The position numbers were made by a program, and so were the translations under genes. The notes beneath the pieces were generated by a model. It had not been told where the DNA came from. It saw nothing but the letters and a program-made list of their open reading frames with translations, and searched no databases. Of a stretch of 23,172 nucleotides of DNA, positions 4,840 through 22,360 are shown piece by piece. The stretch is taken from assembly GCA_041747305.1 (NCBI GenBank), contig JBGTFK010000070.1, positions 1 through 23,172 on the forward strand. Reading direction: 5' to 3'. How positions within the stretch are numbered: position 1 is the stretch's first letter; the number at the start of each line of letters is the position of its first letter. Origin of the DNA: Candidatus Nitrosocosmicus sp. (GTDB taxonomy: Archaea > Thermoproteota > Nitrososphaeria > Nitrososphaerales > Nitrososphaeraceae).

Positions 4840-5565
4840 TCAAGTCATTGGTATGGATGGAGTAGTAATTGTGTTGTTAAGCTGTATGTTTTCATCCGTG
4901 TTCGTATTATTTGGAACCTGAGGAAGTTTGGTATCATTAATCGTTGGAGGAACCTGAGGAAGGTCGGATTGAATATCACTACCTAGTCCAGAGTTTAGTA
5001 TTGAATTTATTTTATTCGAGTCTATACTCACCGATTTAATAATGTAATCACCTACTGGCAGGAACTGATCAAATATGTTACTTGATGTAATAAATAACAT
5101 TCCTGTCTGGATCCCATCGGAATTAACAGATATAACAGTTAACACATTTCGTTGGTCTTCACCTTCTAGTTTAAAAGTCGATATATATGAACATGCTAGA
5201 GCATCATTCAAAGTATATGTACCGCATTCAATTGGTTGTAATAACTCATAGTTATCAAAATTCTCATACGAAGGTAATTGAGATGCTGCTGCGTCATTTG
5301 AATTAAAATGAAGTGAATTATCTATTAACAATTCCGTCCATGCAAAAGATGTTCCTCTGTCAGCATATCGAAATATGTAATCTATAGGAGCTAATTTTTC
5401 ATTCTCTGGCATTCTCTCTGGAAACCAGTTCGAGGGTATTTGAATCGAGAACAAACCATCCCCCTCATCAAAAGTCTTCCAAGTAATCTGAGCATATGAT
5501 TGAGTTGGTAGTATACAAATGATCAATGCTGTAATAATGATAAAAATCAGAGATTTAAATAACAT
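4840..5565 (-). CDS. Secreted protein, paralog of 7246-8415 (possible PsbP-like fold; family not certain)
   Basis: 241 aa. Signal peptide MLFKSLIFIIITALIICILPTQSYAQ. The following ~165 aa align throughout with the N-terminal half of the 392-aa protein (ITWKTFDEGDGLFSIQIPSNWFPE vs VTWKTFSEEKGLFSIEIPSNWYPE, and so on). Pro/Asn/Thr-rich tail. Confidence 0.85.
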   Translation of the reverse strand: MLFKSLIFIIITALIICILPTQSYAQITWKTFDEGDGLFSIQIPSNWFPERMPENEKLAPIDYIFRYADRGTSFAWTELLIDNSLHFNSNDAAASQLPSYENFDNYELLQPIECGTYTLNDALACSYISTFKLEGEDQRNVLTVISVNSDGIQTGMLFITSSNIFDQFLPVGDYIIKSVSIDSNKINSILNSGLGSDIQSDLPQVPPTINDTKLPQVPNNTNTDENIQLNNTITTPSIPMT

Positions 5566-6253: not shown

Positions 6254-7212
6254 GAGCCTATCCCCAAATTCGATAGTATTATAGCTGGTTTTCGCTAATC
6301 CTGAACCGTGACCTGCATCCATAAGATGGATAAAGTAAATGGTAGAAAGAATAATCGTACCATCATAACCATTCCAGATAAATTATGCCGTGAAATTAGG
6401 AATGTCTTATCCAAAGAGAAACCATTTAAAACTTTGGGTCGACCGGTTATACCCTACAGAAAAGTACTTGATAGTTTTCTCTACGTTCTTCGAACGGGAT
6501 GTCAGTGGAAAATGCTTCCCAAAGATTGTGGTTCAGGTTCCACCTCTGTCAGAGAAGATTCTAAGAATGGGTCAGTTTGGATGACTTTAAAAAGATATGG
6601 GTTATATTATTAAAAATATATGATATCAACTGGACTTGGCGATCGCTTGACTCCATATCCATAAGGTCGCCTTTAGAGGGGGAGATGACTGGAAATAATA
6701 CTCCGAACAGGAGAAAACTAGTCACAAAAAGACATATTCTGACAGATAAGAAAGGCATTCCACTATCGATTGTCATACCGTCTGCCAGTACTCATGAAGT
6801 TAAACTGGTAATAGAAGTGGTAGATAATTCAGTCATCAAACAACCACTATCATCATATAAGCCTAAACAAGAAAGAACGAAAAGAAAACTGCAACACCTG
6901 TGTCTTGATAAAGCACATAATTCCAAACAAGAAGAATAGGAACTAATCAAACGAGGATATGTCCAGTATATTCCTTATAGGGGAAGAAAAAGTAAAAAAT
7001 ATGAGGATGAGGAGATCAAGAGTAAAACAAAATCCAACCTAAACCGAAAAAAATGTTCTGCAAAAAGATGAGTTGTAGAAAGGACAAACTCTTGGCATAA
7101 CCGATTCCGAAAATTTTTATCTGATACGAGAAGAAGATGGAGAACTATTTTGGAATGGTACCGTTCTCCTGTTGTATAATAATTTGTAGAAGAATAATGT
7201 TGGGATAGGCTC
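6254..7212 (+). mobile_element. IS5-family insertion sequence, decayed
   Basis: Terminal inverted repeats GAGCCTATCCCCAA (6254-6267) and the reverse complement of 7199-7212, GAGCCTATCCCAAC. Flanked by direct TAA (6251-6253 and 7213-7215). Encodes an IS5-type DDE transposase. Confidence 0.85.
6308..7208 (+). pseudogene. IS5-family (DDE_Tnp_1-like) transposase, disrupted
   Basis: ORF A carries ...GRPVIPYRKVLDSFLYVLRTGCQWKMLPKDCGSGST.... A frame change follows to ...FKKIWVILLKIYD...TGNNTPNRRKLVTKRHILTDKKGIPLSIVIPSASTHEVKL...HLCLDKAHNSKQEE. Then stops and shifts through ...R*VVERTNSWHNRFRK... (TGA where W is expected) and ...YEKKMENYFGMVPFSCCIIICRRI. Confidence 0.85.
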
Positions 7213-7245: not shown

Positions 7246-8415
7246 TTACTGTATTGCAGTTGTTATTCTAAATGAATTGACCATGTTGTGAAAAACTGGT
7301 AAAGAGTCATTAAATTCATCCAGTGTTCCGCCATATGTTATTACATAAACCATGTCATTCACTATTGTCCATACTTGCATGTTTTTTAACTCCACTCCAT
7401 TTACAAAGTACGTATAAATTATTTGGTTTGCAGGATAAGCAGATAACGTGGAATTGGATGTTTCAAGTAAATTCATACTTGGAAATTGAGTGCGCAATAC
7501 ATTCAGTGCAGAATTGCTATATTCTTTTAAACTAGTATCTGATGAAACTACTTCGGTTGTTATAGCCATGGATTCTGGAGCTTCATCGGTAGCCGAGAGT
7601 CTTGGTGAATATAATAAAAGAGACGGAGGTGAAAGACTTTCCTCCTTGGTCCAATTAGATGGATATTCTAATGAAAATCCAAGGTTTGGGTTTTCATAAA
7701 CTATGGTTTCAGATCCATTTGCTTCATTTGGTGACTGTAGTATCTGGGGAATGTCCAAACCACTGGAATCGTTTGATCCCTTTTGGACAGATGTTAGCGG
7801 AATCTGAGGAATTTCAGACTGCATGTCTAATGTAGATTGGTCATTCAACATTTCATTGACGTTATTTGAGTCTATTTTTATTGAATTAATAGCATACTCA
7901 CCCACGGGTAGAAAGGAGTCATAAATATCACTTGAGGTTATGAAACTCACATAGGTTTGAATTCCGTTTGGAGAGGTAGATATAATATCTAGTATGTTTC
8001 TTCTTTCTTCACCTTCCAACTGTTGGCTTGATAAAAAGGAACAGGCGGGTGAGTCATTTAATATATATGTATTACAATCTATTGGTTTCAATAAAATAAA
8101 ATCATCAAATTGTTGATATTCTGATATATAAGATTCCGCAACAGCTCGAGCATCTGAATATATCGATTTGCTAATCAGCAATTCAATCCAAGCGAATGAA
8201 TTACCTCTGTCAGCATAACGGAATAAATAGTCTATCGGTGTCAATTTCTGGGATTCGGGTACCACTTCAGGATACCAGTTTGAAGGTATTTCTATAGAGA
8301 ACAAACCCTTCTCTTCACTAAAGGTTTTCCACGTTACCTGTCCAAATGATTGATTAACAACCGCCATCGAAACAATCAATACAGAAAGCATAAAAAGAAA
8401 GAATTTAAATAACAT
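7246..8415 (-). CDS. Secreted two-domain protein, paralog of 4840-5565 with an extra C-terminal domain
   Basis: The ORF track starts at TTG 8424. ATG 8415 instead gives MLFKFFLFML..., matching the paralog's MLFKSLIFII, and places the TATA box at the usual distance. The C-terminal ~170 aa (YENPNLGFSLEYPSNWTKEE...) are absent from the paralog. Confidence 0.85.
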   Translation of the reverse strand: MLFKFFLFMLSVLIVSMAVVNQSFGQVTWKTFSEEKGLFSIEIPSNWYPEVVPESQKLTPIDYLFRYADRGNSFAWIELLISKSIYSDARAVAESYISEYQQFDDFILLKPIDCNTYILNDSPACSFLSSQQLEGEERRNILDIISTSPNGIQTYVSFITSSDIYDSFLPVGEYAINSIKIDSNNVNEMLNDQSTLDMQSEIPQIPLTSVQKGSNDSSGLDIPQILQSPNEANGSETIVYENPNLGFSLEYPSNWTKEESLSPPSLLLYSPRLSATDEAPESMAITTEVVSSDTSLKEYSNSALNVLRTQFPSMNLLETSNSTLSAYPANQIIYTYFVNGVELKNMQVWTIVNDMVYVITYGGTLDEFNDSLPVFHNMVNSFRITTAIQ

Positions 8416-8436
8416 CAATTTCAAAAATACTTCTTT

Positions 8437-8446: not shown

Positions 8447-8471
8447 ATTGCCAGATTTTTTATGGCTCTGT

Positions 8472-8783
8472 TCACTTAACGGCTTCTAACTCCTTGTTAT
8501 GATGATCTACAAATAGATTCAGCCAATTTCTTATATGCTGTAGTTTACAATTCTTAATCTTACATGGAAAGTAATCGTCGAAACTTTCAGTCCGGTCCTT
8601 GATGTACTACATTGTCCTCTCTATAATGCTTTTCTCCAAAGAGGAATGCATGTGATGATCTAGTTTCAGAAATCTACATGCTTGTGGATACCAGGTTCCA
8701 CCATCCGTTGATACAGGGTGTTTCCTATGATTTCTGACTAAATCGGCAATGAATCGTTCTGCTATTAACATGTTTCTTTCTTT
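8472..8783 (-). pseudogene. C-terminal half of the host IS6 transposase
   Basis: The minus strand reads ...KERNMLIAERFIADLVRNHRKHPVSTDGGTWYPQACRFLKLDHHMHSSLEKSIIERTM*YIKDRTESFDDYFPCKIKNCKLQHIRNWLNLFVDHHNKELEAVK*, with an in-frame TAG. Confidence 0.8.
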
Positions 8784-8898
8784 GGTTCTGTCAAGTTCCC
8801 GTCATATATTTTACTTTTCTAAGGCTGTAAAAAAGCGTCAGATGAAATCCAACCCTCCAATAATTTTTAATAGTATTTTTTCGAATCATCTATTGTAA

Positions 8899-9354
8899 TT
8901 GCTTACGCGGGAAGAAATTAAACAAAAAATCGTCACATGGATAAATGAAAATAATTGGTCACATACTGAATTTAGTACCCCAACAGTATATTTTCATTGT
9001 ATTATTAACCTCAAAGATGGAAGGAAATACAATATAGTAATAGAAAAAATTATTGACCGGATTGATTTCATTTCTACGATTGATGTCCCTGAAGATTATC
9101 AATCCAGTTATAAACTATCCAAGGACAAATACAAATTTTGGACTGACCTTAAGGTAAACCTTATGCTAATGGATATTAGTACAATGGTATATCCAAATTT
9201 GGAAGAACTTAAAACCTTGGAAATTAGTGCAGTGTTGTATTTTGATGCTTTTTCTCAGGATAGATTTATGCAATTGACAAATAAATTTGCTGACGCGATT
9301 GGGTTATGCAATATAATGTGGAAAAAATTTATCGATAGTCAGGTAAAAACCTAA
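8899..9354 (+). CDS. Hypothetical protein (passenger ORF 1)
   Basis: 151-aa ORF with TTG start, soluble-looking. No family recognised with confidence. Confidence 0.5.
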   Translation: MLTREEIKQKIVTWINENNWSHTEFSTPTVYFHCIINLKDGRKYNIVIEKIIDRIDFISTIDVPEDYQSSYKLSKDKYKFWTDLKVNLMLMDISTMVYPNLEELKTLEISAVLYFDAFSQDRFMQLTNKFADAIGLCNIMWKKFIDSQVKT

Positions 9355-9691
9355 TTATCGAGTTTTGGGAAATTATGGTTATGATTTAACCAAATTATAA
9401 ATAATTTGTCTAAATCGTGGTCATTTTTTGTTTTACTATCCATACCCATATTCAATAGTATATTGTCAAAAACTATTTAAATCAATTTTTTTGGCATTGT
9501 ATCAAGAAAACTTTTTCTATGCTATTATCTCAGCTTTTCTAACAATTACCCATGAGAAGAGGTTCGGTAACTTCTCACAGGTGAAAGATACTGGCTGAAA
9601 TTACTCAAATAAAGCAATGTTGATTTAGAATTTAAGCTTTAAGGGAATTAAGTTCTAATATAAATAGCTATTAAGGAGGAGAACGTATATT

Positions 9692-9868
9692 TCACTTGGA
9701 ATCTTTGGAAGGATTAGTTCCAAAGATTCTAAGGGCGACATACAGTCCAATGCCAGCACCTAAAAACAAAGCACCTTTGAAAATTAGCACGTTGGCTAAT
9801 TTCTCTAGGGGAAAGATGTTTGGTGATTGACTCCTATGTCCTTTATGGTTTGATGTTAAAAACATCAT
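9692..9868 (-). CDS. Possible small single-pass membrane protein (below the ORF-track length cutoff)
   Basis: The minus strand reads MMFLTSNHKGHRSQSPNIFPLEKLANVLIFKGALFLGAGIGLYVALRIFGTNPSKDSK*, with one clear TM helix. AAGGAAGG lies just upstream of the ATGATG. Confidence 0.3.
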   Translation of the reverse strand: MMFLTSNHKGHRSQSPNIFPLEKLANVLIFKGALFLGAGIGLYVALRIFGTNPSKDSK

Positions 9869-9928
9869 CCTTCCTTAACTGGAAGGATATATTATTCTTT
9901 TGATTAGTAACGAAATCTATTTATTGGG

Positions 9929-10108
9929 CTACTTATAAATTGGTTCTACTATTATATTATTATCCTTTACAATAAATTTAATAGAACTTGGATTTCCAAG
10001 TATCTCGATAACTGGTTTAGGAATAGAACTTGAATACCCTCTGCCCTCTACATAGTTTACACCAACTTCAAATTCTTTGGTATCTTTTTTCCACTTTGGC
10101 ACATTCAT
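9929..10108 (-). CDS. AbrB/SpoVT-like small DNA-binding protein (putative regulator of the IS)
   Basis: The track ORF extends to 10192, but the first 28 codons overlap the promoter and repeat region. ATG 10108 gives the 59-aa MNVPKWKKDTKEFEVGVNYVEGRGYSSSIPKPVIEILGNPSSIKFIVKDNNIIVEPIYK. The IPKxVIExLG...I.....I pattern is typical of swapped-hairpin AbrB/MazE-type domains. Confidence 0.5.
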   Translation of the reverse strand: MNVPKWKKDTKEFEVGVNYVEGRGYSSSIPKPVIEILGNPSSIKFIVKDNNIIVEPIYK

Positions 10109-10116
10109 ATAATTGA

Positions 10117-10175
10117 TATCTACGTATATAACAATATCTTTATATCTACGTAGTTTGTATTTATCTACGTAGATA
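10117..10175. promoter_or_regulatory. Divergent control region with three TATCTACGTA repeats
   Basis: TATCTACGTA occurs at 10117-10126, 10143-10152 and 10162-10171. The third copy is part of the perfect 14-bp palindrome TATCTACGTAGATA (10162-10175), which overlaps the A of the transposase ATG. TATA-like CTTTATATC lies at 10138-10146 (+). The minus-strand TTATATAC around 10124-10131 faces the AbrB-like gene. Confidence 0.6.
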
Positions 10176-11287
10176 TGAGCAAATACCAACAAGTAAACTG
10201 TGAAAAATCTGGTAAGTTATTACAAAACAATGTGAGAAGGATTGACGATAAAAACTATAAAGTTAAATCCTCTAGCGGAAGCATAACCTACTCTATCCTT
10301 GCCACAACAATTGGTTGGATTTGTTCATGTCCTGACCAAATGTTTAGGGGTGTCAAATGCAAGCACGTCTATGCTGTCGAGTTTAGCCTTGAACTTCGAA
10401 AGGCCGTTGAGATAAGGTATATAACTGAAGTTGTTATTAGCGGTTGCAAATACTGTAGTTCTGATTTAGTTGTAAAATGTGGTTTAAGGAAAAATAAGCA
10501 TGGTGATTTACAAAAGTTCCTCTGTAAGGACTGTAACCGATGCTTTACTATCAATCTGGGCTTTGAGAGAATGAAACACAATTCCCACGGGATTACAACT
10601 GCAATACAACTCTATTTTAGCGGTGAATCTTTGAGAAATACTGCTCATTCTCTCAAGTTGTTGGGAGTAGACGTTAGCCATCAAACAATCTACAATTGGA
10701 TTGAAAAGTACACTAAATTAATGGACAAATATCTTGAGAAAATCACCCCCAAGGTTTCAACTGCTTGGAGAACGGATGAGCTCTACTTGAAGGTAAAGGG
10801 CAACAAGATATATCTTTATGCTCTCATGGACGATGAGACAAGGTTCTGGATAGCCCAACAGGTAGCAGAGACAAAATATGATGCTGACATAAAGCCCATG
10901 TTCAAGAGAGGAAAGGAACTAGCAGGCATAAAACCGCTTACTCTGATTAGCGATGGTGCTCCTAACTTTCATACAGCCTATAAAAAAGAATTTCAAACTC
11001 ATATACTACCAAGAACAAAACATATCCGACACATACGAGTACAGGGCGACCATAATAACAACAAGATGGAAAGAATGAATGGTGAAATCAGGGACAGGGA
11101 GAAAACCATGAGGGGATTAAAGAAGTCTGACACGCCAATCCTTAGAGGCCTGCAAATCTACCACAACTATATTCGAGAGCATGAAGCCCTGAAAGGACAG
11201 ACACCAGCCGAGAAATGCGGTATTAAGGTAGGAGGTAAGAACAAGTGGAAGACGTTGATTGAAAATGCTTCTGATTCTCAGCTATAA
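10175..11287 (+). CDS. IS6-family DDE transposase with N-terminal SWIM-type and zinc-ribbon fingers
   Basis: 370 aa, intact. SWIM-like CSCPDQMFRGVKCKHVYAV. Ribbon CKYCSS...CKDCNRCF. DDE region WRTDELYLKVKGNKIYLYALMDD ... LISDGAPNFHTAY ... NNNKMERMNGEIRDREKTMRGLK ... HEALKGQTPAEKCGI. Confidence 0.9.
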   Translation: MSKYQQVNCEKSGKLLQNNVRRIDDKNYKVKSSSGSITYSILATTIGWICSCPDQMFRGVKCKHVYAVEFSLELRKAVEIRYITEVVISGCKYCSSDLVVKCGLRKNKHGDLQKFLCKDCNRCFTINLGFERMKHNSHGITTAIQLYFSGESLRNTAHSLKLLGVDVSHQTIYNWIEKYTKLMDKYLEKITPKVSTAWRTDELYLKVKGNKIYLYALMDDETRFWIAQQVAETKYDADIKPMFKRGKELAGIKPLTLISDGAPNFHTAYKKEFQTHILPRTKHIRHIRVQGDHNNNKMERMNGEIRDREKTMRGLKKSDTPILRGLQIYHNYIREHEALKGQTPAEKCGIKVGGKNKWKTLIENASDSQL

Positions 11288-11313
11288 GGAAAAAGATTTA
11301 ATATGATGTTGTA

Positions 11314-11688
11314 TTGTCAAAATTAAAAAAAGCATTAATAAAGATTAGAGAGCATATATCTTTTCATCTTCCGATGAGACTTTATACTGTATGTAAAACT
11401 TGTAATCATAAGTTTTATGTAGCTAGTAATATAAAAATTCGTTCACAATTACCTAATTCATTTTATTTGACTTGTCCATATCATCATACTAATTCTTACA
11501 GTCCACAAGAAATTTTTGCAGAAACATCCGAAGGTAATATTACTATAGGTGGGGCATTGGTTGGTGGTATAATAGGATTAATTGCAGGGGGTATTGGCGC
11601 AATCGCCGGTGCGATTTTGGGAGGTGTACTTGGAGGAGGAAGAGAAAAATCGGATTCTGATGCTGTTACAAGGTTTAATGCAAGTTGA
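11314..11688 (+). CDS. Zinc-ribbon plus glycine-zipper membrane protein (passenger)
   Basis: 124 aa (TTG start). CKTC...x23...CPYHH followed by GGALVGGIIGLIAGGIGAIAGAILGGVLGGG, a glycine-zipper TM segment. Confidence 0.55.
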   Translation: MSKLKKALIKIREHISFHLPMRLYTVCKTCNHKFYVASNIKIRSQLPNSFYLTCPYHHTNSYSPQEIFAETSEGNITIGGALVGGIIGLIAGGIGAIAGAILGGVLGGGREKSDSDAVTRFNAS

Positions 11689-12050
11689 ATGATGTATTAC
11701 CATTCTTAAATTATATCATAATGGCTCTTGTATTTATGATAACAATATTGTATGTTTTCTTTAAAATTCATAGAAAAAATCCAAGCTTATTAAAACCTGC
11801 TTTAATTAAAGACGAAAATATAGACAATAGTGAAACAACTTATGAATGGAATCTAATTGCAAACATATTCATAATATGTCTTACATTTGCTGTGGGAATA
11901 GGGATAGTATCCAATCTTATAATATTCATGTTTACCGATAAATGGTATATTAATTCTGAAAGTACCTTTGTAATCATTATTATATTTATTATTTTTACAT
12001 TAAGAGAATTTGATAAATTTGTAACTAAGTTATTTAAAAATAGTCATTGA
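11685..12050 (+). CDS. Small polytopic membrane protein (passenger)
   Basis: 121 aa with three hydrophobic helices. Overlaps the previous stop by 4 nt (TTGA). The alternative start is ATG 11721. Confidence 0.5.
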   Translation: MNDVLPFLNYIIMALVFMITILYVFFKIHRKNPSLLKPALIKDENIDNSETTYEWNLIANIFIICLTFAVGIGIVSNLIIFMFTDKWYINSESTFVIIIIFIIFTLREFDKFVTKLFKNSH

Positions 12051-12149
12051 TACTATATGGGTAGAAATAAAAAATTTAATCCTTTTTTCATCTGACGGTT
12101 TTTTACAATCTCAAATTAGGTGTTGATATGACTACAAGTTGACAGAACC

Positions 12150-12424
12150 CTTTCTTTGGATTTATTATCTAAAAAAGTGCGAGAATTTGTCTGTTTTCAG
12201 GCTCAATTGCAACCCAAAGCCAGATAGATTCAGAACCAACTTTGATTAGTGTCTCATCAACAACATACTCTGTTATCTTCCTCCTACGATATAACAACTT
12301 TTGTGGATGGTACTTTTGAATCCAGTTCCAAATCGATACATGGCTTCGTTTGATAAAGAAAGCAAGTCTCTGGGAGGTTTATCTTAAGGATAAGCCTGAA
12401 AAATACAAATACAGACCATAGCAT
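12150..12424 (-). pseudogene. N-terminal half of the host IS6 transposase
   Basis: The minus strand reads MLWSVFVFFRLILKINSQRLAFFIKRSHVSIWNWIQKYHPQKLLYRRRKITEYVVDETLIKVGSESIWLWVAIEPENRQILAL..., carrying the first D of the DDE motif (VDETLIKV). Confidence 0.8.
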
Positions 12425-12618
12425 ACATACTTTGAAGGTATTCTGTTTCTGTTAATCATAAAAGAGATAGAGCATCTTCAAGCTATAGGCTTATCGTTAA
12501 GTGACCAGAGCCTTTTTTATATTATCACGACATAGTATTATTTTCGGTTAAAAACCCCAATTTTGGAGGTGCAAAAAAAGAATTTCCTTTGATTGATTTA
12601 ATTGATGGCCGAGAAGGA

Positions 12619-13988
12619 TTAGTAAAGTAATTTCCATATCAAATATGCTAGACCTTCTTTATGCAACAAACCAATATTTGCAACATCAATATCTTTGTGG
12701 TCCGCACTGGAGAGCAAAACAATACCTTTGTGAGTAGAGGGATTAAATGCAATTATGGAATTGTATCCGTCAGCGGTTATACCATTATGCCATACTACTT
12801 CGCTACCATAATTAGTATTTATCATCCATCCTAATCCGACATAAAATCCCTCGCCGCTATTGTTATCAGATACTTGGACATTGTTTGGTCCTAGGAATCC
12901 ATTATAGTGTCGAATTAAATGCGATTCTTGCATTGCTGTATCTAATTTTGTCTTAATCAATCCAATATTTGCGGAGACAAATTTTAGCATATCATTAACA
13001 GTAGAATATATTCCTCCACTAGGGGTAATTACAGGAGCTAGATTCCACAGAGGGAGTTCATCTCCATTAATATGTCCCACCGCCACATTAGATTTTTGTT
13101 CCTCTGACAAAGTGATGCTGGTATTTACCATACCTAGCACTGACAAAATCCTCCTTTCCAAGAGATCGTCATATGACATATTCGACTTTAAGGCTAAAAT
13201 GTTACCTAATAGTCCCGTACCAAAAGATGAATATCCAAATTTGGAACCAAATTCTGTTGAAATTGTAGTATTAGAAAGACTCTCGTATAGTTCGGAAGGC
13301 GAATACTCTTGAGAACACTCTATGATTTCCATTCGATATTCTGTGGTACGGTTGGCATCAAAGTTGTTCCAATAATCTTTACAAAAATTATCTGGGAATT
13401 CGGGCAATCCAGCAGTGTGGGTAGCTAGATTTTCCAAGGTCATATTTTGTGCACCATATTGCGGTACCGTCACATTGGTAGGCAAATACTTTTTTAAAGG
13501 ATCATCAAGTTTAATCAGTCCATCATCCATCATATCTGCAAGTAAGATTGTAGTGAATACTTTTGTGATAGAACCGATACCAAAAATTGTATTTTGGTCT
13601 GCTGTGGCGTTTGTTGATCCTGATTTATTACCGTAACCATAAAACTGGATTCCATTTGGATCTACATAACCTAAAACAACTGCAGTGTTTGTACTGTTGC
13701 TATTGGAGACAAGGCTTTTGACGCCATCCCTTATCTCGCCCGATATTCCGTTATTTGCTGATGAATTACCTACATTGTTTTGTGGTGTGGAATCTTTTTT
13801 GGTGGATTTGTTATATTTGGAAATGAACCATACCCAGAATTTGTAATACTAGTAGTTAATAATACAATTGAAATTATCCCTACGAAAAATAACATAAACA
13901 ATTTTGTTGAAAAAGGAATCGAAATCAAGATACAATTTGCTAATAGCAATGGTATATATGCATTTGTGATTTGTGGTCCACCAATCAT
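12619..13988 (-). pseudogene. Beta-lactamase-fold serine hydrolase (class C / esterase-like, PF00144-type), frameshifted
   Basis: The 304-aa ORF is a C-terminal part only. The same frame stays open upstream to ~13850 and encodes ...FGIGSITKVFTTILLADMMDDG, with the SxxK nucleophile motif, but has no start codon. The signal/anchor ORF 13770-13988 (...MLFFVGIISIVLLTTS...) is in another frame. The frames meet at a T6 run (13795-13800). Confidence 0.75.
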
Positions 13989-15521: not shown

Positions 15522-15671
15522 CTACTTTATGTATATAAACAGCTCAGTATTTTTAATCTATTCTAAATTAATAGTTTGAACACAATTAGATTAAATTTTT
15601 TATTTTCTAATCAGATCATTCAGTATAGTTTGTTATCTTTGTAGATAGATTTATTCTTCTTTTTTATGTGA

Positions 15672-15728
15672 ACCCATGTGGATATCCAAACGATTTCCAC
15701 CGAACCAGATATCTATTTTAGTAACGAC
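15672..15728 (+). repeat. Cassette-boundary repeat, subfamily B, copy B1
   Basis: CCCATGTGGATATCCAAACGATTTCCACCGAACCAGATATCTATTTTAGTAACGAC. 10-bp palindrome TGGATATCCA at 15679-15688. Core CCACCGAACC at 15697-15706. Confidence 0.9.
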
Positions 15729-16441: not shown

Positions 16442-17899
16442 ATGATTCACAGAATAAGATCCTCCATTAATACCTATGGATTATTATCCGCTTTTTCCAT
16501 CCCGATGTTTGTTTTGATGATGATGTTTGCGTTTGAATCTTCAGACCATGACGCCCTTGCCCAAAATCAATCCTCTCCTTTGGCTGGGATGAACTTTTCA
16601 AAGCCTATAGATGTATATAGTAAGGATGGAGTTTTGAAAATTACACTCGTTGCAGAATACAAGATAGGTAAAGTTGATAACGAGACAATTACTGCAATGG
16701 TCTATAATGGTTCGCTTCCAGGGCCCGCTTACCATGTTTATCCCGGAGATAGAGTTGAAATTGATTTAGTAAATAATCTCAATGAATCTACCAACCTCCA
16801 TTTTCATGGACTCCATGTATCTCCTGGAAATAACTCGGACAACGTACTTCTTGATGTTGAGCCAGGTATGACACAGCATTATGTTCTCGATATTCCGAAA
16901 GATCACGAACCAGGTACGGATTGGTATCATTCACATTTGCATAAACTTTCTTATGGACAAGTTTCGGCAGGTCTGTCTGGTATATTTATTGTTGAAGGGT
17001 TAGAAAAGTTATTACCAGAATCCTTACAGAATATCACACAACATACCATTGCCATGAGAGATTTTCCATTTGACAATCTATTCGTTACTACAGGTGATTT
17101 GAGTAATACGATGACAATGCATGAACGCCTAACTGTTAACGGAGAAGTCAATCCAGTTATCAACATTAAATCAGGTGAGACTCAGCTTTGGCGTCTTGCA
17201 AATATTGGTCCTGAGAATGAATTCATAGTCCAACTGCCTGGCAATACATTCCATGTTATAGCAGAAGATGGAAGCCCAGTTTGGAACGTGTGGAATAATG
17301 ATACTCTTTTCATGCCTTCTGGAAAACGTTTTGACGTATTGGTGACTGCCAACGGTAGCGGGTCTATTCCATTAGGAGCTGGTAATAGCTCATTTGTTGC
17401 ACCATATGATTTACACATTGCGACTGTAAATATACAAGGTAACCAAACAGATGTAAAACCTGCAGATATCCTTCCAACAAGCTTAATCCCAGAGAGAGAC
17501 CTCAATCTTGCAAACGTCACTAATTATAGAGTCCTCAATTTTTCATCAAATGATAGGGATTGGATATACTCGATAAATAACACGACCTTTGATCATAACA
17601 GAGTAGATATAACGGCAAAGCTTGGAACTGTAGAGGAGTGGAAATTAGTAAACCTTGATAAAGTCTCATCTGGCAATATTCATCCATTCCATATTCATGT
17701 AAATGATTTTCAGGTAATGTCAGTTAACGGAAAACCTTATGATGCTCACGGATACCAAGATACCGTTATTATACCCACGGGAGGTGAAGTAGTTATTAGA
17801 ATACCATTTGATGATTTTGTGGGAAAAACTGTCTATCACTGCCACTTGATGTTTCACGGGGACTTTGGAATGATGGGTATCCTTGAGATCGTTAAATAG
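16442..17899 (+). CDS. Multicopper oxidase (laccase-like), secreted or membrane-anchored
   Basis: 485 aa. All four copper-ligand motifs are present: HFHGLH, WYHSHLH, HPFHIHVNDF and HCHLMFHGDFGMMG. N-terminal hydrophobic signal. Confidence 0.95.
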   Translation: MIHRIRSSINTYGLLSAFSIPMFVLMMMFAFESSDHDALAQNQSSPLAGMNFSKPIDVYSKDGVLKITLVAEYKIGKVDNETITAMVYNGSLPGPAYHVYPGDRVEIDLVNNLNESTNLHFHGLHVSPGNNSDNVLLDVEPGMTQHYVLDIPKDHEPGTDWYHSHLHKLSYGQVSAGLSGIFIVEGLEKLLPESLQNITQHTIAMRDFPFDNLFVTTGDLSNTMTMHERLTVNGEVNPVINIKSGETQLWRLANIGPENEFIVQLPGNTFHVIAEDGSPVWNVWNNDTLFMPSGKRFDVLVTANGSGSIPLGAGNSSFVAPYDLHIATVNIQGNQTDVKPADILPTSLIPERDLNLANVTNYRVLNFSSNDRDWIYSINNTTFDHNRVDITAKLGTVEEWKLVNLDKVSSGNIHPFHIHVNDFQVMSVNGKPYDAHGYQDTVIIPTGGEVVIRIPFDDFVGKTVYHCHLMFHGDFGMMGILEIVK

Positions 17900-18504: not shown

Positions 18505-18812
18505 GTCAAGACAATAGTCTACAAAGTTTTCCCTTTTTCATTTATTCATTTTTGCCGCAAATCTCTTGATTCAAACCACATATTGATTAATTGACATGTA
18601 ATAGGAAATAATCCCGGTTCGCTTACCTAAATGGATTCCAAGGCTTGTTGTAGGATTACGGCTTGATAGTTTGGAAAGATTGTTTTTAATTATTCTGTCT
18701 CCTAGAGTATAAAGTATTATCTAATTAGCGAAAAAAGAAAAGAAAACTAGCTGATTTGAACAAAGCCACTCTAAACATTTTTGATCAAAAGTGCCCATCT
18801 TATACTTTCCTT

Positions 18813-18873
18813 TAATAGACTCATGAGGATATCCACATCATTTCCACCAAACACGATAGTATTAATGGTAACG
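18813..18873 (+). repeat. Cassette-boundary repeat, subfamily B, copy B2 (diverged)
   Basis: TAATAGACTCATGAGGATATCCACATCATTTCCACCAAACACGATAGTATTAATGGTAACG. GGATATCC at 18827-18834. Core CCACCAAAC at 18844-18852. The upstream AATAG(A/G)CTCAT is shared with B4. Confidence 0.8.
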
Positions 18874-18944
18874 TTAGTATTGAAGATTTGTGGATAAATA
18901 ATTTATACTAAAATTATGTATTTTTATCTCAAAGATAACTCTAA

Positions 18945-19583
18945 CTAGGGTCCTTCCCAGCTAAATGGTATATGCTTGCTAGACCTGCCCTTTCTCTTCC
19001 ACTTAAAACTCATTGTATCTACCTCATCATTCAAAGATATTCCCCATGTAGCAACGGCACCTGGACCAACCTCACTTCCAGGCGGATTTATTGTTTGAAC
19101 TCTTTTTCCTGGTGGAGTCATTGGGCCTCCTAATGCTACTGCTTTCGCAAGAACTTTTCCCGGAATCTCGGCACTCCACTGGCTCAAATCCTCAGAAATT
19201 TCAAATCTTATGGGGGCAAAATCAATTCCCTTGATTTCCCCTATCAACTTGGCAAATTCTGACATAAATCCGCCGGCCTTCCCGCTAAAAATCATCTGAA
19301 GCGCATCTCTCTGTTTTTCTTCAGCGCGCTCATCGAAAAATAAACCCAGATTTACCTTTGTATTTCCTGCCCAAATATTTCCTTCAAACGCTCCTATAGC
19401 TAATGCATTCAATCCATCCAATGATGTATCACCGTAATGTCCTTTGTTGATATGATACGCCAATATGCCCTCGCAATCTCCAAAGGTAGGTTCTTGAGCA
19501 AATTCACAAGGACATGGTATTTTACATTTACATACATCAAACCAATCTCCAGAAGCTTTCCAAGAGGGAATGCTATCCGTCAT
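18945..19583 (-). CDS. DUF1326 family protein (copy 2)
   Basis: 212 aa. N-terminal Cys cluster DVCKCKIPCPCEF and the motif GHYGDTSLDGL match the DUF1326 pattern (CNCD.GCPCQF ... G.FGD..LDG). Confidence 0.85.
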   Translation of the reverse strand: MTDSIPSWKASGDWFDVCKCKIPCPCEFAQEPTFGDCEGILAYHINKGHYGDTSLDGLNALAIGAFEGNIWAGNTKVNLGLFFDERAEEKQRDALQMIFSGKAGGFMSEFAKLIGEIKGIDFAPIRFEISEDLSQWSAEIPGKVLAKAVALGGPMTPPGKRVQTINPPGSEVGPGAVATWGISLNDEVDTMSFKWKRKGRSSKHIPFSWEGP

Positions 19584-19698
19584 GCAATTAGATAAATATA
19601 CTAAAATATAAAATTACCTTACTTTATAGGAAATTTTCCAGTATTCAAATATGATTATGAAAATAATGCAAATATTCTTTATTTAATTACTATTCTGG

Positions 19699-20670
19699 TT
19701 AACTCATATCCATATCCATATCCATATCCATATTGTTATCGCTAATTTTATCCTCGTCCTTATCTTGGTTAGAATCTTCCATCACCATACTGTTCATCTC
19801 ATTGGGAGAATTATGCATTCCGCCTTCTTCTATTATAATTGGTATTATTCCTGTTATTGAAAGAAAACCTGCAATTACAAACACAATACCTGCTCCTCTT
19901 GCAATCCAGATTCCTTTAGACCAGACTTTCTCTGCAAAAATAATTGCTGCAAACATTCCCATCCATAATATGTTCATCCATCCTAAAGCAATCATGAGTA
20001 AAAAATAAGGCCAACAACATCCAAGACAGTACATACCGTGATACAGACCCATCTTTAACCCGTCTTTCATTTGGTTTCCTTTCCATCTTTTTATAAAAAA
20101 TGATAAGGGAGATTCGCAATAACCCAAACATCTTTCCTTCAATGGGCTAAATTGGTAAATTCCAGACACAATGAGCAAAATTCCAGACACAATCGCAAAA
20201 TCTTTTACGCTATATCCTATAAACAGATTATTCATAATTATAGACCAAAACACTAGCAGCATAACACCTGTTAATGCCCAGACCAAAAGGTATGTTCCTA
20301 CAAATCCTAATGTTTTAATAGCTCTTTTAGAAAGAAGTGCGAATGATCTGGAATGTTGTCTATTATCTCTTTCTTCTAAATTATCTGTATGCTGATTGAA
20401 TTTACTTACTAGAGATAAATTATCCTTTTTGTTATTATTATTATTTTGATCGCTAGAGATAATGCGATTGTATAATAACACCATTGGAATCATTGCTGGA
20501 AACATCATGGCTGCCATCCCGACGGTCCAACTTATTGTAAATATAGTAACTGCTATTGGATTTAGTGTCATCATGGCCTCCATCATGTCTGGCTGTTCTA
20601 TGGAAAAAAGCCATGTAATGACTGAGATAGAAAGCAAGGATAAGAGTATTATCTTTTGAGATTTATCCAA
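19699..20670 (-). CDS. DUF2182 family predicted metal-binding integral membrane protein
   Basis: 323 aa, polytopic. Family motifs WTVGMAAMMFPAMIPMV, KERCLGYCESPLSFF and GMYCLGCCWPYFLLM. The Met/Asp-rich C-terminus ends NNMDMDMDMDMS. Confidence 0.85.
   Translation of the reverse strand: MDKSQKIILLSLLSISVITWLFSIEQPDMMEAMMTLNPIAVTIFTISWTVGMAAMMFPAMIPMVLLYNRIISSDQNNNNNKKDNLSLVSKFNQHTDNLEERDNRQHSRSFALLSKRAIKTLGFVGTYLLVWALTGVMLLVFWSIIMNNLFIGYSVKDFAIVSGILLIVSGIYQFSPLKERCLGYCESPLSFFIKRWKGNQMKDGLKMGLYHGMYCLGCCWPYFLLMIALGWMNILWMGMFAAIIFAEKVWSKGIWIARGAGIVFVIAGFLSITGIIPIIIEEGGMHNSPNEMNSMVMEDSNQDKDEDKISDNNMDMDMDMDMS
19705..19733. repeat. Hexanucleotide tandem repeat (CATATC)x4.8 encoding the (MD)n tail
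   Basis: CATATCCATATCCATATCCATATCCATAT lies at the 3' end of the DUF2182 gene. Confidence 0.9.
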
Positions 20671-20724
20671 TGAAATAACGCTCTTAAACGGCTAGTGGAT
20701 TTTTATGGTAAAATAGGGTTAACT

Positions 20725-21363
20725 TTAAGGTCCCTTGTATTCTATTACAGAGTAAAGCGCATTCTTACCCGAATGGTCATAATTGAGGTGGGGAGTTGTA
20801 ATTCTCATTACTTTGGTTTTTGCCGCTTCTGCTAGTTTCCAGATAAAACCTTTGGGTAATTGTATCTTTGTATCTTGTTCTTCGCCTGTAACCGGGTTAA
20901 CAAAGCTTTCTGACTGCACATCTATGATGCCCGGAACGGTAAAGCCACTTTTTTTGCCGTCTATATTTACTTGGATGTCTACAAACTGTGGTTCTAGAAA
21001 AAACTTTATTGTTCCTGCAAATAAGGTAAATGGACCTTCACCTTTAGCTTGACCTGAAAAAATAGATATGATGGAGTTTCTTTGTTCATTACTTGTATTT
21101 TTTGATATGAATAATTGGGCAGTGCCATTTCCTTCATGAATTGCTTTGGGCCAAGAGAAAGCACAAATTACATCAATTCCGTCAAGACTTGTATCGCCAT
21201 AGTTTCCTGAGCGAATGTGAAACAATACTAATGCTCTGCAGAAACCGTTGGATGGAAATCCATTGAAATTACACGGACATCCATAATCACAATTACAGGT
21301 TTCAACATAGTCTGCTTTAAAGGTCCAAGCAGGAATTTGATTTAAAGTAGAAGTCATATACAC
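20725..21363 (-). CDS. DUF1326 family protein (copy 1)
   Basis: 212 aa (GTG 21363; ATG 21357 gives MTSTLNQIPAW, which parallels the paralog's MTDSIPSW). Motifs CNCDYGCPCNFNGFPSNGFCRA and GNYGDTSLDGI. Confidence 0.85.
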   Translation of the reverse strand: MYMTSTLNQIPAWTFKADYVETCNCDYGCPCNFNGFPSNGFCRALVLFHIRSGNYGDTSLDGIDVICAFSWPKAIHEGNGTAQLFISKNTSNEQRNSIISIFSGQAKGEGPFTLFAGTIKFFLEPQFVDIQVNIDGKKSGFTVPGIIDVQSESFVNPVTGEEQDTKIQLPKGFIWKLAEAAKTKVMRITTPHLNYDHSGKNALYSVIEYKGP

Positions 21364-21380
21364 TTACTCTAATCGAAATA

Positions 21381-21392
21381 TATTAATTTTTA
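21381..21392 (-). promoter_or_regulatory. TATA-like box for the DUF1326-DUF2182-DUF1326 operon
   Basis: The minus strand reads ATTAATATATTT about 25-30 nt upstream of the start codon. Confidence 0.4.
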
Positions 21393-21490
21393 CAGTACTA
21401 TCATATACATTTGATTTTCGGTAAATAAGATTGTCTGAACTATTTTAAATGACAGTTATTTTAACATCAACCATTTGTTTTTGATACCGA

Positions 21491-21540
21491 CCTCTGTGGA
21501 TATCCAAACGATTTCCACCGAACCCGCTAAATAGAAGAGT
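21491..21540 (+). repeat. Cassette-boundary repeat, subfamily B, copy B3
   Basis: CCTCTGTGGATATCCAAACGATTTCCACCGAACCCGCTAAATAGAAGAGT. The 30-nt stretch GTGGATATCCAAACGATTTCCACCGAACC is identical to B1. Palindrome at 21497-21506 and core at 21515-21524. Confidence 0.9.
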
Positions 21541-22153: not shown

Positions 22154-22301
22154 TGTAGTATAAGTTTACAAATAAGAAAAATACTTGGTATATCCGACCG
22201 AGTGTCAAGTCTATATTATTTTTTGCTGCAAGTACATTGCAATACCATATTGTATTTTAATCTGTTCGGCGAAAATTGATTATAGTTTCAAATCTTGTCT
22301 T

Positions 22302-22360
22302 AAATAGGCTCATTTGGATATCCAAACGATTTCGACCGAACGAGATCTTATTTGTAATGA
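22302..22360 (+). repeat. Cassette-boundary repeat, subfamily B, copy B4
   Basis: AAATAGGCTCATTTGGATATCCAAACGATTTCGACCGAACGAGATCTTATTTGTAATGA. Perfect 12-bp palindrome TTGGATATCCAA at 22314-22325. Core CGACCGAAC at 22333-22341. Confidence 0.85.

Follow-up and report, generated by a model that had tools for sequence, protein, structure and literature searches.

A DUF1326–PpoB2–DUF1326 operon as a candidate copper-acquisition module of soil ammonia-oxidizing archaea

Copper-related features of the operon

A three-gene operon of Candidatus Nitrosocosmicus sp. (contig JBGTFK010000070.1) encodes a polytopic membrane protein of the PpoB2 family (PF09948, formerly DUF2182/COG5486) flanked by two proteins of the DUF1326 family (PF07040), DUF1326-A and DUF1326-B. 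The whole stretch of DNA analysed, referred to here as the window, is 23,172 nucleotides (nt) long. The operon is a lineage-specific variant of a known, mechanistically obscure family, distinguished by its dual DUF1326 genes and by a Met-rich tail and a cytoplasmic insert in the membrane protein. The identity of the PF09948 family, the precedent of PpoB2 itself, the invariant motifs, the Met-rich tail seen in ammonia-oxidizing archaea (AOA) and the induction of a homologue in Nitrososphaera viennensis all suggest a role in copper handling. It is about evenly probable that the three genes form a copper-acquisition or copper-supply module of soil AOA, which would combine Ctr1-like uptake of Cu(I) with a hand-off of the metal.

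The three open reading frames (ORFs) are intact and lie on the minus strand with intergenic gaps of 54 and 115 nt, as described in the initial annotation, a reading of the letters and ORF translations that had reported three co-directional genes with 54–115-nt gaps. DUF1326-A is encoded at positions 20725–21363 and has 212 amino acids (aa) when counted from a GTG codon, but an ATG at 21357 is the more probable start, supported by the 210-aa gene calls in two other Nitrosocosmicus loci (L002 and L003). An A/T-rich archaeal TATA-like element, AAAAATTAATATATTT (21376–21391, minus strand), was read by eye with its centre about 26 nt upstream of this ATG, suggesting that the operon may be transcribed as a leaderless message. 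The membrane protein (19699–20670) has 323 aa and a TTG start. DUF1326-B (18945–19583) has 212 aa, and another TATA-like element found by eye, TTTTATATTTT (19603–19613, minus strand), is centred about 25 nt upstream of its ATG and may be an internal promoter for this gene. The family assignments are clear: the membrane protein scores 171.7 bits with PF09948 (cut-off 28.7; E value 2.1e-50), and DUF1326-A and DUF1326-B match PF07040 with E values of 4.6e-52 and 2e-55. The scores of the two paralogues are 188.1 and 177.2 bits (cut-off 25), the higher one belonging to the lower E value. The two DUF1326 proteins are only 26% identical to each other, so that their earlier description as diverged paralogues holds.

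Pfam now lists PF09948 as 'PpoB2, copper chaperone', and the annotation of the DUF2182 family by JGI is 'predicted metal-binding membrane protein'. PpoB2 of Marinomonas mediterranea, which is encoded with the tyrosinase PpoB1, is needed specifically for the transfer of copper to PpoB1 and was the first member of COG5486 to be assigned a role (2007 work, reviewed in PMC2855505). DmdE and DmdF, an adjacent DUF2182/DUF1326 pair of Ruegeria lacuscaerulensis, are essential for the demethylation of dimethylsulfoniopropionate (DMSP) (EMBO J 2026; PMC12992908). In view of PpoB2 and of DmdE/DmdF, the initial statement that neither family had an experimentally defined function is outdated.

Functional evidence for a role in copper handling, and specifically for one when copper is scarce, is strongest in N. 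viennensis. Copper limitation imposed with the Cu2+-selective chelator triethylenetetramine (TETA) raises the DUF2182 gene NVIE_016320 by a log2 fold change of +2.60 (adjusted P 2.8e-27) and the adjoining gene NVIE_016330, annotated 'hypothetical protein', by +2.64 (adjusted P 2.6e-35) (PMC7785015, Dataset S1). This rise of about 6-fold is on a par with that of copC/D (+2.68 and +2.20), to which the authors of the study draw attention, yet it is absent from the main text and sits unremarked in the supplementary table (PMC7785015). The dsbD gene and the exporter gene copA2 are also up under these conditions. CopC/D and MCO1 with a permease are the current candidates for copper uptake in AOA.

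The metal-ligand motifs of the membrane protein are conserved across the family. Met-55, Met-56, Pro-58, Gln-173 and Lys-178 are invariant in all 278 homologues; Cys-185, His-211, Cys-215, Cys-218 and Cys-219 are retained in 277, Glu-247 and Lys-248 in 276, and Cys-181 in 273. The family motifs MM.P, YQF..LK..C...C.(S)P and HG..C.GCC ... EK are present both in the window protein and in at least 273 of the 278 homologues, and they are also invariant in 9 diverse sequences. Both DUF1326 paralogues contain the N-terminal cluster CxCx3CPC...C (C18-x-C20-x3-C24-P-C26...C37), whose five Cys are near-invariant in 20 diverse cluster representatives; each of the five occurs in 267 or more of the 279 full-length sequences. 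These samples of 278 DUF2182 and 279 DUF1326 sequences lean to archaeal and B-subtype proteins, but they also take in proteins from Bacillus, Rhodococcus, Polaromonas, Leisingera and Ralstonia. The motifs listed in the initial annotation (CLGYC, YCLGCCW, PDMMEAMM, AAMMFPAMIPM, ...MDMDMDMDMS, C.C...CPC and G.YGDTSLDG) are all present in the translations, and the conservation of the Cys/Met motifs in orthologues, on which it had staked its proposal, extends to about 280 homologues per family, in which they are near-invariant.

Hydropathy and the positive-inside rule predict seven hydrophobic helices, with the N-terminus of the membrane protein inside and its C-terminus outside. The prediction places outside both the conserved, acidic, Met-containing loop QPDMMEAMMTLNP and a C-terminal tail of 42 aa with 9 Met, 13 Asp/Glu and 2 Lys/Arg residues. 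The second transmembrane segment (TM2) contains Met-52, Met-55, Met-56, Pro-58 and Met-60. The predicted cytoplasmic face carries C181-x3-C185, H211-G-x2-C215-x2-C218-C219 and E247-K248, with Cys-181 and Cys-185 in a K/R-rich stretch (residues 176–210) and the His-211, Cys-215, Cys-218 and Cys-219 ligands at the start of TM5. An AlphaFold2 (AF2) model has helices that agree with the hydropathy analysis and a disordered tail, at a low predicted local distance difference test (pLDDT) score of 54.6.

The tail is a feature of the archaeal proteins. Every complete Nitrososphaeraceae homologue inspected ends in a Met-rich (M-x-M) tail, with repeats of the MNMN, MDMD or MTMSMDMP type, and among 59 Nitrosocosmicus-like orthologues the median content of this tail is 9 Met per 41 residues, its character being kept while its sequence is not. 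In contrast, most bacterial homologues stop directly after the last helix; the exceptions are three proteins that end in a short Gly/Met-containing stretch, and those of Bacillus and Rhodococcus, which have short His-rich tails. In the archaeal PpoB2-family proteins, moreover, the cytoplasmic loop that follows TM2 is extended by an insert of about 50 residues. A perfect hexanucleotide microsatellite, (ATGGAT)4.8, detected by Tandem Repeats Finder at 19705–19733 on the minus strand, encodes the terminal (Met-Asp)n of the window protein. The same array in Ca. N. agrestis (L014, 7792–7885) has 15.7 perfect copies, so that the length of the tail varies by slippage between close relatives.

In Nitrososphaeraceae, gene A, gene B and that of the membrane protein are kept together in more than one order. 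The order A–PpoB2–B is kept in nine other Nitrosocosmicus loci, in some of which individual members are frameshifted, and other Nitrososphaeraceae show the orders A–B–PpoB2 or B–PpoB2, or a B gene facing a PpoB2–A pair. When archaeal loci were anchored on the membrane protein gene, a DUF1326 gene was adjacent in all ten. The genome survey used an alignment of B-subtype DUF1326 proteins and is therefore biased towards that subtype. In bacteria, the B–PpoB2 arrangement predominates; a DUF1326–DUF2182–B triple is present in Vicinamibacteraceae (L093), and at an actinobacterial locus (L089) two DUF2182 genes are clustered with three DUF1326 genes. Published work calls dmdE and dmdF 'always adjacent' in bacteria (PMC12992908).

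These observations lead to a plausible scheme for copper entry. The Met-rich loop (QPDMMEAMM) and the long disordered Met/Asp-rich tail would capture Cu(I) outside the cell, and the ion may then pass along the Met-lined TM2 (Met-52, Met-55, Met-56 and Met-60). The thiolate and imidazole ligands of the invariant CxxxC and HGxxCxGCC motifs would present Cu(I) at the cytoplasmic face, where the five-Cys clusters of DUF1326-A and DUF1326-B might take it up as acceptors, buffers or distributors.

DUF1326 proteins and alternative roles

Both DUF1326 proteins are predicted to be cytoplasmic. Since they have neither a signal peptide nor a transmembrane segment, they would share the side on which the conserved Cys/His ligands of the membrane protein are predicted to lie. 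DUF1326-A ends in ...SGKNALYSVIEYKGP, and the consensus of its group is ...SGKNA(L/F)YSV(I/V)EY(K/R)GP; orthologues with the same C-terminal motif occur at 12 other Nitrososphaeraceae loci, and in our sample the group is confined to this family. DUF1326-B has the conserved C-terminal motif SSKHIPFxWxGP and further conserved polar residues at Arg-161, Gln-163, Glu-171 and Ser-201–Ser-202–Lys-203–His-204. Archaeal proteins of this 'SSKH' subtype are 44–64% identical to those of Bacillus, Streptomyces, Rhodococcus, Microvirga, Binatia and others, and in the genome scan DUF1326-B itself is 58–64% identical to its bacterial orthologues. For the B-type proteins of soil bacteria (Acidimicrobiales, Gemmatimonadaceae, Binatia, Rubrobacteraceae, Microvirga and others; L055, L059, L068–L081 and L083–L093), identity to the archaeal protein is 58–67%. 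These last values are above the expectation for vertical descent and point to cross-domain transfer among soil organisms.

PF09948 and PF07040 jointly comprise thousands of sequence clusters, and sequence and profile searches of the PDB returned no solved structure for either family. An AF2 model of DUF1326-B built from a 70-sequence alignment has a pLDDT of 92.4 and a predicted template-modelling score (pTM) of 0.89; it is mostly beta, and the Cys cluster sits between the first two strands. In a Foldseek search of the PDB with this model, the best matches were acetoacetate-decarboxylase-like proteins (E value about 1e-5, template-modelling score 0.4–0.5), indicating a moderate likeness of the predicted structure to that fold.

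A census of gene neighbours shows no enrichment for metal genes among the commonest families around DUF1326 and DUF2182. At 91 loci it took in the 423 ORFs that are no more than 3 kb from the DUF genes, which were assigned to Pfam in three batches, and it reads the 25 commonest families of each batch, so that rarer copper genes could be missed. The commonest neighbours are methyltransferases, alpha/beta hydrolases, luciferase-like oxidoreductases, short-chain dehydrogenases/reductases (SDRs), SnoaL proteins and Zn-dependent dehydrogenases. The annotated plasmid contexts are heterogeneous: a Bacillus plasmid has thioredoxin, TlpA and a four-helix-bundle copper-binding protein; a Rhodococcus plasmid has the pair between an aliphatic amidase and an iron-chelate-type ATP-binding cassette (ABC) transporter; the Microvirga locus has LysR, MsrA and MsrPQ-like genes; and the remaining contexts are unrelated to these.

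Several observations weigh against the proposed role in copper acquisition. No copper or other metal family is among the top 25 of any census batch, the sole exception being two fragments of one multicopper oxidase (MCO)-like gene at locus L033, and a search of about 95 loci found relatives of the MCO gene of the window only in the window and at L033. A solitary B gene is common in Nitrososphaeraceae. The promoter motif associated with copper limitation in N. viennensis does not occur above chance at this locus. The expression data come from the sister genus Nitrososphaera, with NVIE_016330 annotated as no more than a 'hypothetical protein', and two genes of that species annotated as DUF1326, NVIE_008000 and NVIE_018060, are highly expressed and barely respond to copper (+0.65 and +0.40; PMC7785015). 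The low confidence of the AF2 model for the membrane protein leaves hydropathy as the sole basis of the predicted topology. The modelled fold of DUF1326-B and its polar motif look more like those of an enzyme than of a classical metallochaperone. Finally, the one direct biochemical study of a DUF1326 protein, that of DmdF, reports that the purified protein consumes H2O2 and describes this as 'peroxidase' activity, with copper going unmentioned (PMC12992908). The guess of copper handling in the initial annotation is therefore supported in part, by stronger evidence than it could draw on: family identity, motifs, tail and induction fit it, but the survey it had suggested for an enrichment of metal genes, now carried out, shows none among the commonest families.

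The results with DmdF raise the alternative that the operon is a thiol or peroxide stress system, in which DUF1326 would be a Cys- or metal-dependent peroxidase-like enzyme, DUF2182 its redox partner in the membrane and copper an indirect trigger. In addition to the consumption of H2O2, the dmdF mutant has raised levels of reactive oxygen species (PMC12992908), the enzyme-like fold predicted for DUF1326-B would suit such a role, and bacterial neighbours include DinB, MsrA with MsrPQ-like genes in Microvirga and thioredoxin with TlpA on the Bacillus plasmid; the rise of dsbD in copper-limited N. viennensis is also in line with it. However, the DmdF assays used very large amounts of protein and 1.76 M H2O2, which is weak evidence for a physiological peroxidase, and a redox metal bound to DmdF would give the same result. 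Redox genes are likewise not enriched in the neighbour census, and neither the extracytoplasmic Met tail specific to AOA nor the copper phenotype of PpoB2 is explained. This alternative is therefore unlikely.

The conserved motifs and the predicted topology would fit either direction of transport, so that the flow of copper could also be outward, with DUF1326 delivering Cu(I) to an exporting membrane protein that either serves the metallation of ammonia monooxygenase, MCOs and plastocyanins or detoxifies the cytoplasm. AOA cuproenzymes are mostly outside the cytoplasm, copA2 is up under copper limitation in N. viennensis, and Met-rich segments are found in copper-resistance proteins as well. 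Detoxification is hard to square with induction under limitation, the membrane protein has no energy-coupling domain, and linkage to copA, copZ or cus is not seen among the commonest census families. PpoB2, moreover, supplies copper to an enzyme and is not described as conferring resistance. An outward route is thus considered decidedly unlikely.

It is quite improbable that the operon handles a different thiophilic or transition metal (Zn, Co, Ni or Fe), or that DUF1326 holds an Fe–S cluster or structural zinc. A five-Cys cluster would be able to bind Zn or an Fe–S cluster, the Rhodococcus pair lies beside the iron-chelate-type transporter, and the JGI label names no specific metal. On the other side, M-x-M repeats are typical ligands of Cu(I) and Ag(I), not of Zn or Fe. 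The induction in N. viennensis was brought about with a Cu2+-selective chelator, and the precedent within the family is copper.

The adjacent multicopper oxidase, flanking repeats and remainder of the window

The window also contains an MCO gene, identified by Pfam, at 16442–17899 on the plus strand, with an ORF for a 190-aa partner alongside. The initial annotation had placed this MCO unit to the left of the operon, upstream on the plus strand, and implied a link between the two. Given the minus-strand orientation of the operon, the unit, which ends 460 nt from gene B, is downstream of the operon and convergent with it, and it belongs to a separate transcription unit. The distance of 460 nt, the service of PpoB2 to one specific oxidase and the presence of an MCO-like gene 1.1 kb from a B-type DUF1326 gene at L033 would be in keeping with the operon being a dedicated maturation factor for the adjacent MCO. 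The two units are convergent, however, and at the nine further Nitrosocosmicus loci that carry this operon no MCO is present within 8–10 kb. Genomes share DNA homology only as far as the borders of the operon. AOA genomes carry several MCO genes each, so that by a rough estimate chance alone would give nearly as many adjacencies as the two in about 60 AOA loci. A role in MCO maturation is therefore largely refuted by synteny and is left with a very small probability, and the adjacency, seen in two of about 95 loci, is best read as coincidence.

The borders of the operon are marked by copies of an intergenic repeat. One copy (family D1; core TGGATATCCAAACGATTTCCACCGAAC) lies at 21475–21529 on the plus strand, about 110–165 nt upstream of the operon and on the strand opposite to it, and a degenerate copy, 67% identical to the reference copy, lies at 18804–18858 on the plus strand, about 90 nt downstream of the last operon stop. 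Four copies of the repeat core, GACCCATGTGGATATCCACACGATTTCCACCGAACCC, are found in the window (15657–15711, 18804–18858, 21475–21529 and 22293–22347), each of them on the plus strand, and related CCACCGAA pieces occur at 216–244 and 2178–2237. The copies separate the MCO with its 190-aa partner, the DUF operon, ORF153 and ORF205 from one another, and this repeat-spaced series of gene units looks like a cassette array. The upstream repeat is at the same relative position in four other loci (L001, L002, L003 and L015) and the downstream one in two (L003 and L015), again on the strand opposite to the operon.

Comparison with eight other Nitrosocosmicus loci shows that DNA homology is limited to the operon and about 50–200 nt on each side, often ending inside a repeat (the upstream one in L001 and L002, the downstream one in L002, L003 and L015), and the genes flanking the operon differ in every Nitrosocosmicus genome compared. 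Therefore, the three genes behave as a unit that is found at different places. Of the marks of a mobile cassette, border repeats and coinciding ends of homology were found, but a hairpin site, a recombinase and a target-site duplication were not: the copies are direct repeats with folding z-scores of -0.95 to +0.78, giving no hairpin, and no recombinase adjoins the operon among the ORFs of the window. The repeat core occurs exactly in 41 soil-metagenome contigs, where it is always intergenic, follows no orientation rule relative to genes and has accessory genes as its neighbours (SDRs, TIR-domain proteins, methyltransferases and hydrolases). The repeat is thus generic, an intergenic element of the flexible genome of this clade. 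The repeat bracket noted in the initial annotation is thus real, and synteny does end there; the suggestion that the operon travels as one unit between the repeats is tempered by their generic nature, and they are not a demonstrated end of a mobile element.

Two specific functions considered for the repeat were rejected: an attC-like integron site, because the repeat has no secondary structure, and an operator of a copper regulon, because copies stand at 3' as well as 5' ends, show no orientation bias and neighbour unrelated accessory genes. In Ca. N. agrestis, a partial second copy of the 3' end of gene B with the downstream repeat (L014, 15068–15478) is 74% identical to 18819–19235 of the window, which suggests a past duplication or recombination at the repeat. 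At another Nitrososphaeraceae locus (L094, 3757–8224), a DUF1326–PpoB2 pair has a phage-type integrase on one side and a DDE transposase on the other, a context that again places the module in mobile, flexible regions of the genome.

The G+C content of the window is low, about 30–38%. Its best genome match is Ca. N. agrestis, with 92% protein identity, and the closest named proteins and loci belong to Nitrosocosmicus. Rfam and tRNA scans of the window gave no matches, and a reading as a defence system was dropped because PADLOC found none. A 3.4-kb element at 8784–12149 is bounded by 64-nt inverted repeats (8784–8847 and 12086–12149) and contains a DDE_Tnp_IS240+SWIM transposase gene (10175–11287) together with small ORFs at 8899–9354 (DUF2299), 11314–11688 and 11685–12050. 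Its flanks (8463–8783 and 12176–12515) are contiguous in L002 (13843–13522 and 13511–13173), inside a fragment of an IS240-like gene, so that the element looks like a nested insertion. An IS4/IS5-family transposase at 6308–6939 is split over two overlapping frames, with DUF4096 in the N-terminal and DDE_Tnp_1 in the C-terminal part, as a result of either a programmed frameshift or decay to a pseudogene. Two paralogous secreted proteins (4840–5565 and 7246–8424) share an N-terminal domain that gives rise to the DNA repeats D2/D5 with a spacing of 2850 nt, and the longer paralogue has a PsbP-like C-terminal domain. A beta-lactamase-family ORF at 12619–13533 has 304 aa compared with 409 aa in L003, L014 and L015, and its Pfam match begins at profile position 68, so it is probably 5'-truncated or decaying; this family recurs beside the operon in other Nitrosocosmicus genomes. 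A gene for a CrcB-like fluoride channel followed by a DUF190 gene (1363–2067) is an ordinary pairing.

Relation to known copper systems

Ammonia oxidation and electron transport in AOA run on copper enzymes, and the module described here is a concrete additional candidate for copper uptake. A broader proposal, which must be regarded as doubtful, is that PpoB2 and DUF1326 constitute a widespread, unrecognised prokaryotic pathway for Cu(I) import and hand-off, and that this pathway is the entry route of soil AOA under copper limitation. If Cu(I) import is the true function, it would reconcile the two threads of published work, on PpoB2 and tyrosinase and on DmdEF and DMSP. DMSP demethylation yields methanethiol, which a copper-dependent methanethiol oxidase removes (PMC5739008), and so, speculatively, demethylation may turn toxic in the absence of a route for copper. 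The dmdE mutant is partly rescued by deletion of dmdA (PMC12992908), which would fit a loss of copper supply in Ruegeria.

PpoB2 of M. mediterranea belongs to the same PF09948 family and is likewise a polytopic membrane protein with metal-binding motifs. The link to copper supply is also common to both, being indicated here by the induction of the homologue in a related archaeon under copper limitation. Unlike ppoB2, which is in an operon with the tyrosinase that is its client, the gene in the window is accompanied by two DUF1326 genes, and a client enzyme is absent from the operon. Furthermore, the AOA proteins have the cytoplasmic insert of about 50 aa and the Met-rich tail, which are missing in nearly all bacterial members.

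DmdE/DmdF and the Leisingera locus L012 share with the window the adjacent pairing of the two families and the conserved Cys motifs. In contrast to the operon, dmdEF sit with dmdR, dmdA, acuI and dinB, and no domains of these four were found in the window ORFs scanned or among the top neighbour families. This agrees with the published observation that DmdEF homologues outside Rhodobacterales are set apart by phylogeny and show no linkage to DMSP genes (PMC12992908). The DUF1326 protein of Roseobacter is a distant subtype by profile comparison (E value 6e-32 compared with 1e-89 for DUF1326-B), there is one DUF1326 gene there and not two, and its membrane partner lacks the Met-rich tail.

The five-Cys cluster of DUF1326 may be compared with the CxCx4CxC sites that bind Cu(I) or Zn in copper regulators of the CopY and Ace1 types. 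Although the acetoacetate-decarboxylase-like beta fold predicted for DUF1326 lacks a DNA-binding domain, and its spacing is one residue shorter, the CxCx3CxC motif with a fifth Cys appears from its sequence to be a closely spaced thiolate cluster of the same Cu(I)/Zn-binding kind.

Ctr1 transporters have Met motifs outside the cell, Met residues in a transmembrane helix and a Cys/His site for hand-off in the cytoplasm. The window protein has no match to the Ctr family of Pfam at E values up to 0.01, and it is predicted to have seven helices where Ctr1/COPT proteins have three. By analogy, however, the same elements are all predicted here, namely Met motifs outside, Met residues within the membrane (M56-x3-M60) and, in the cytoplasm, a Cys/His site turned towards a soluble acceptor. 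The CopC/CopD fusions of N. viennensis belong to unrelated families, and their genes are neither in the window nor near the module at any surveyed locus. Nevertheless, they are a proposed route of copper uptake in soil AOA and are induced to an equal extent under copper limitation.

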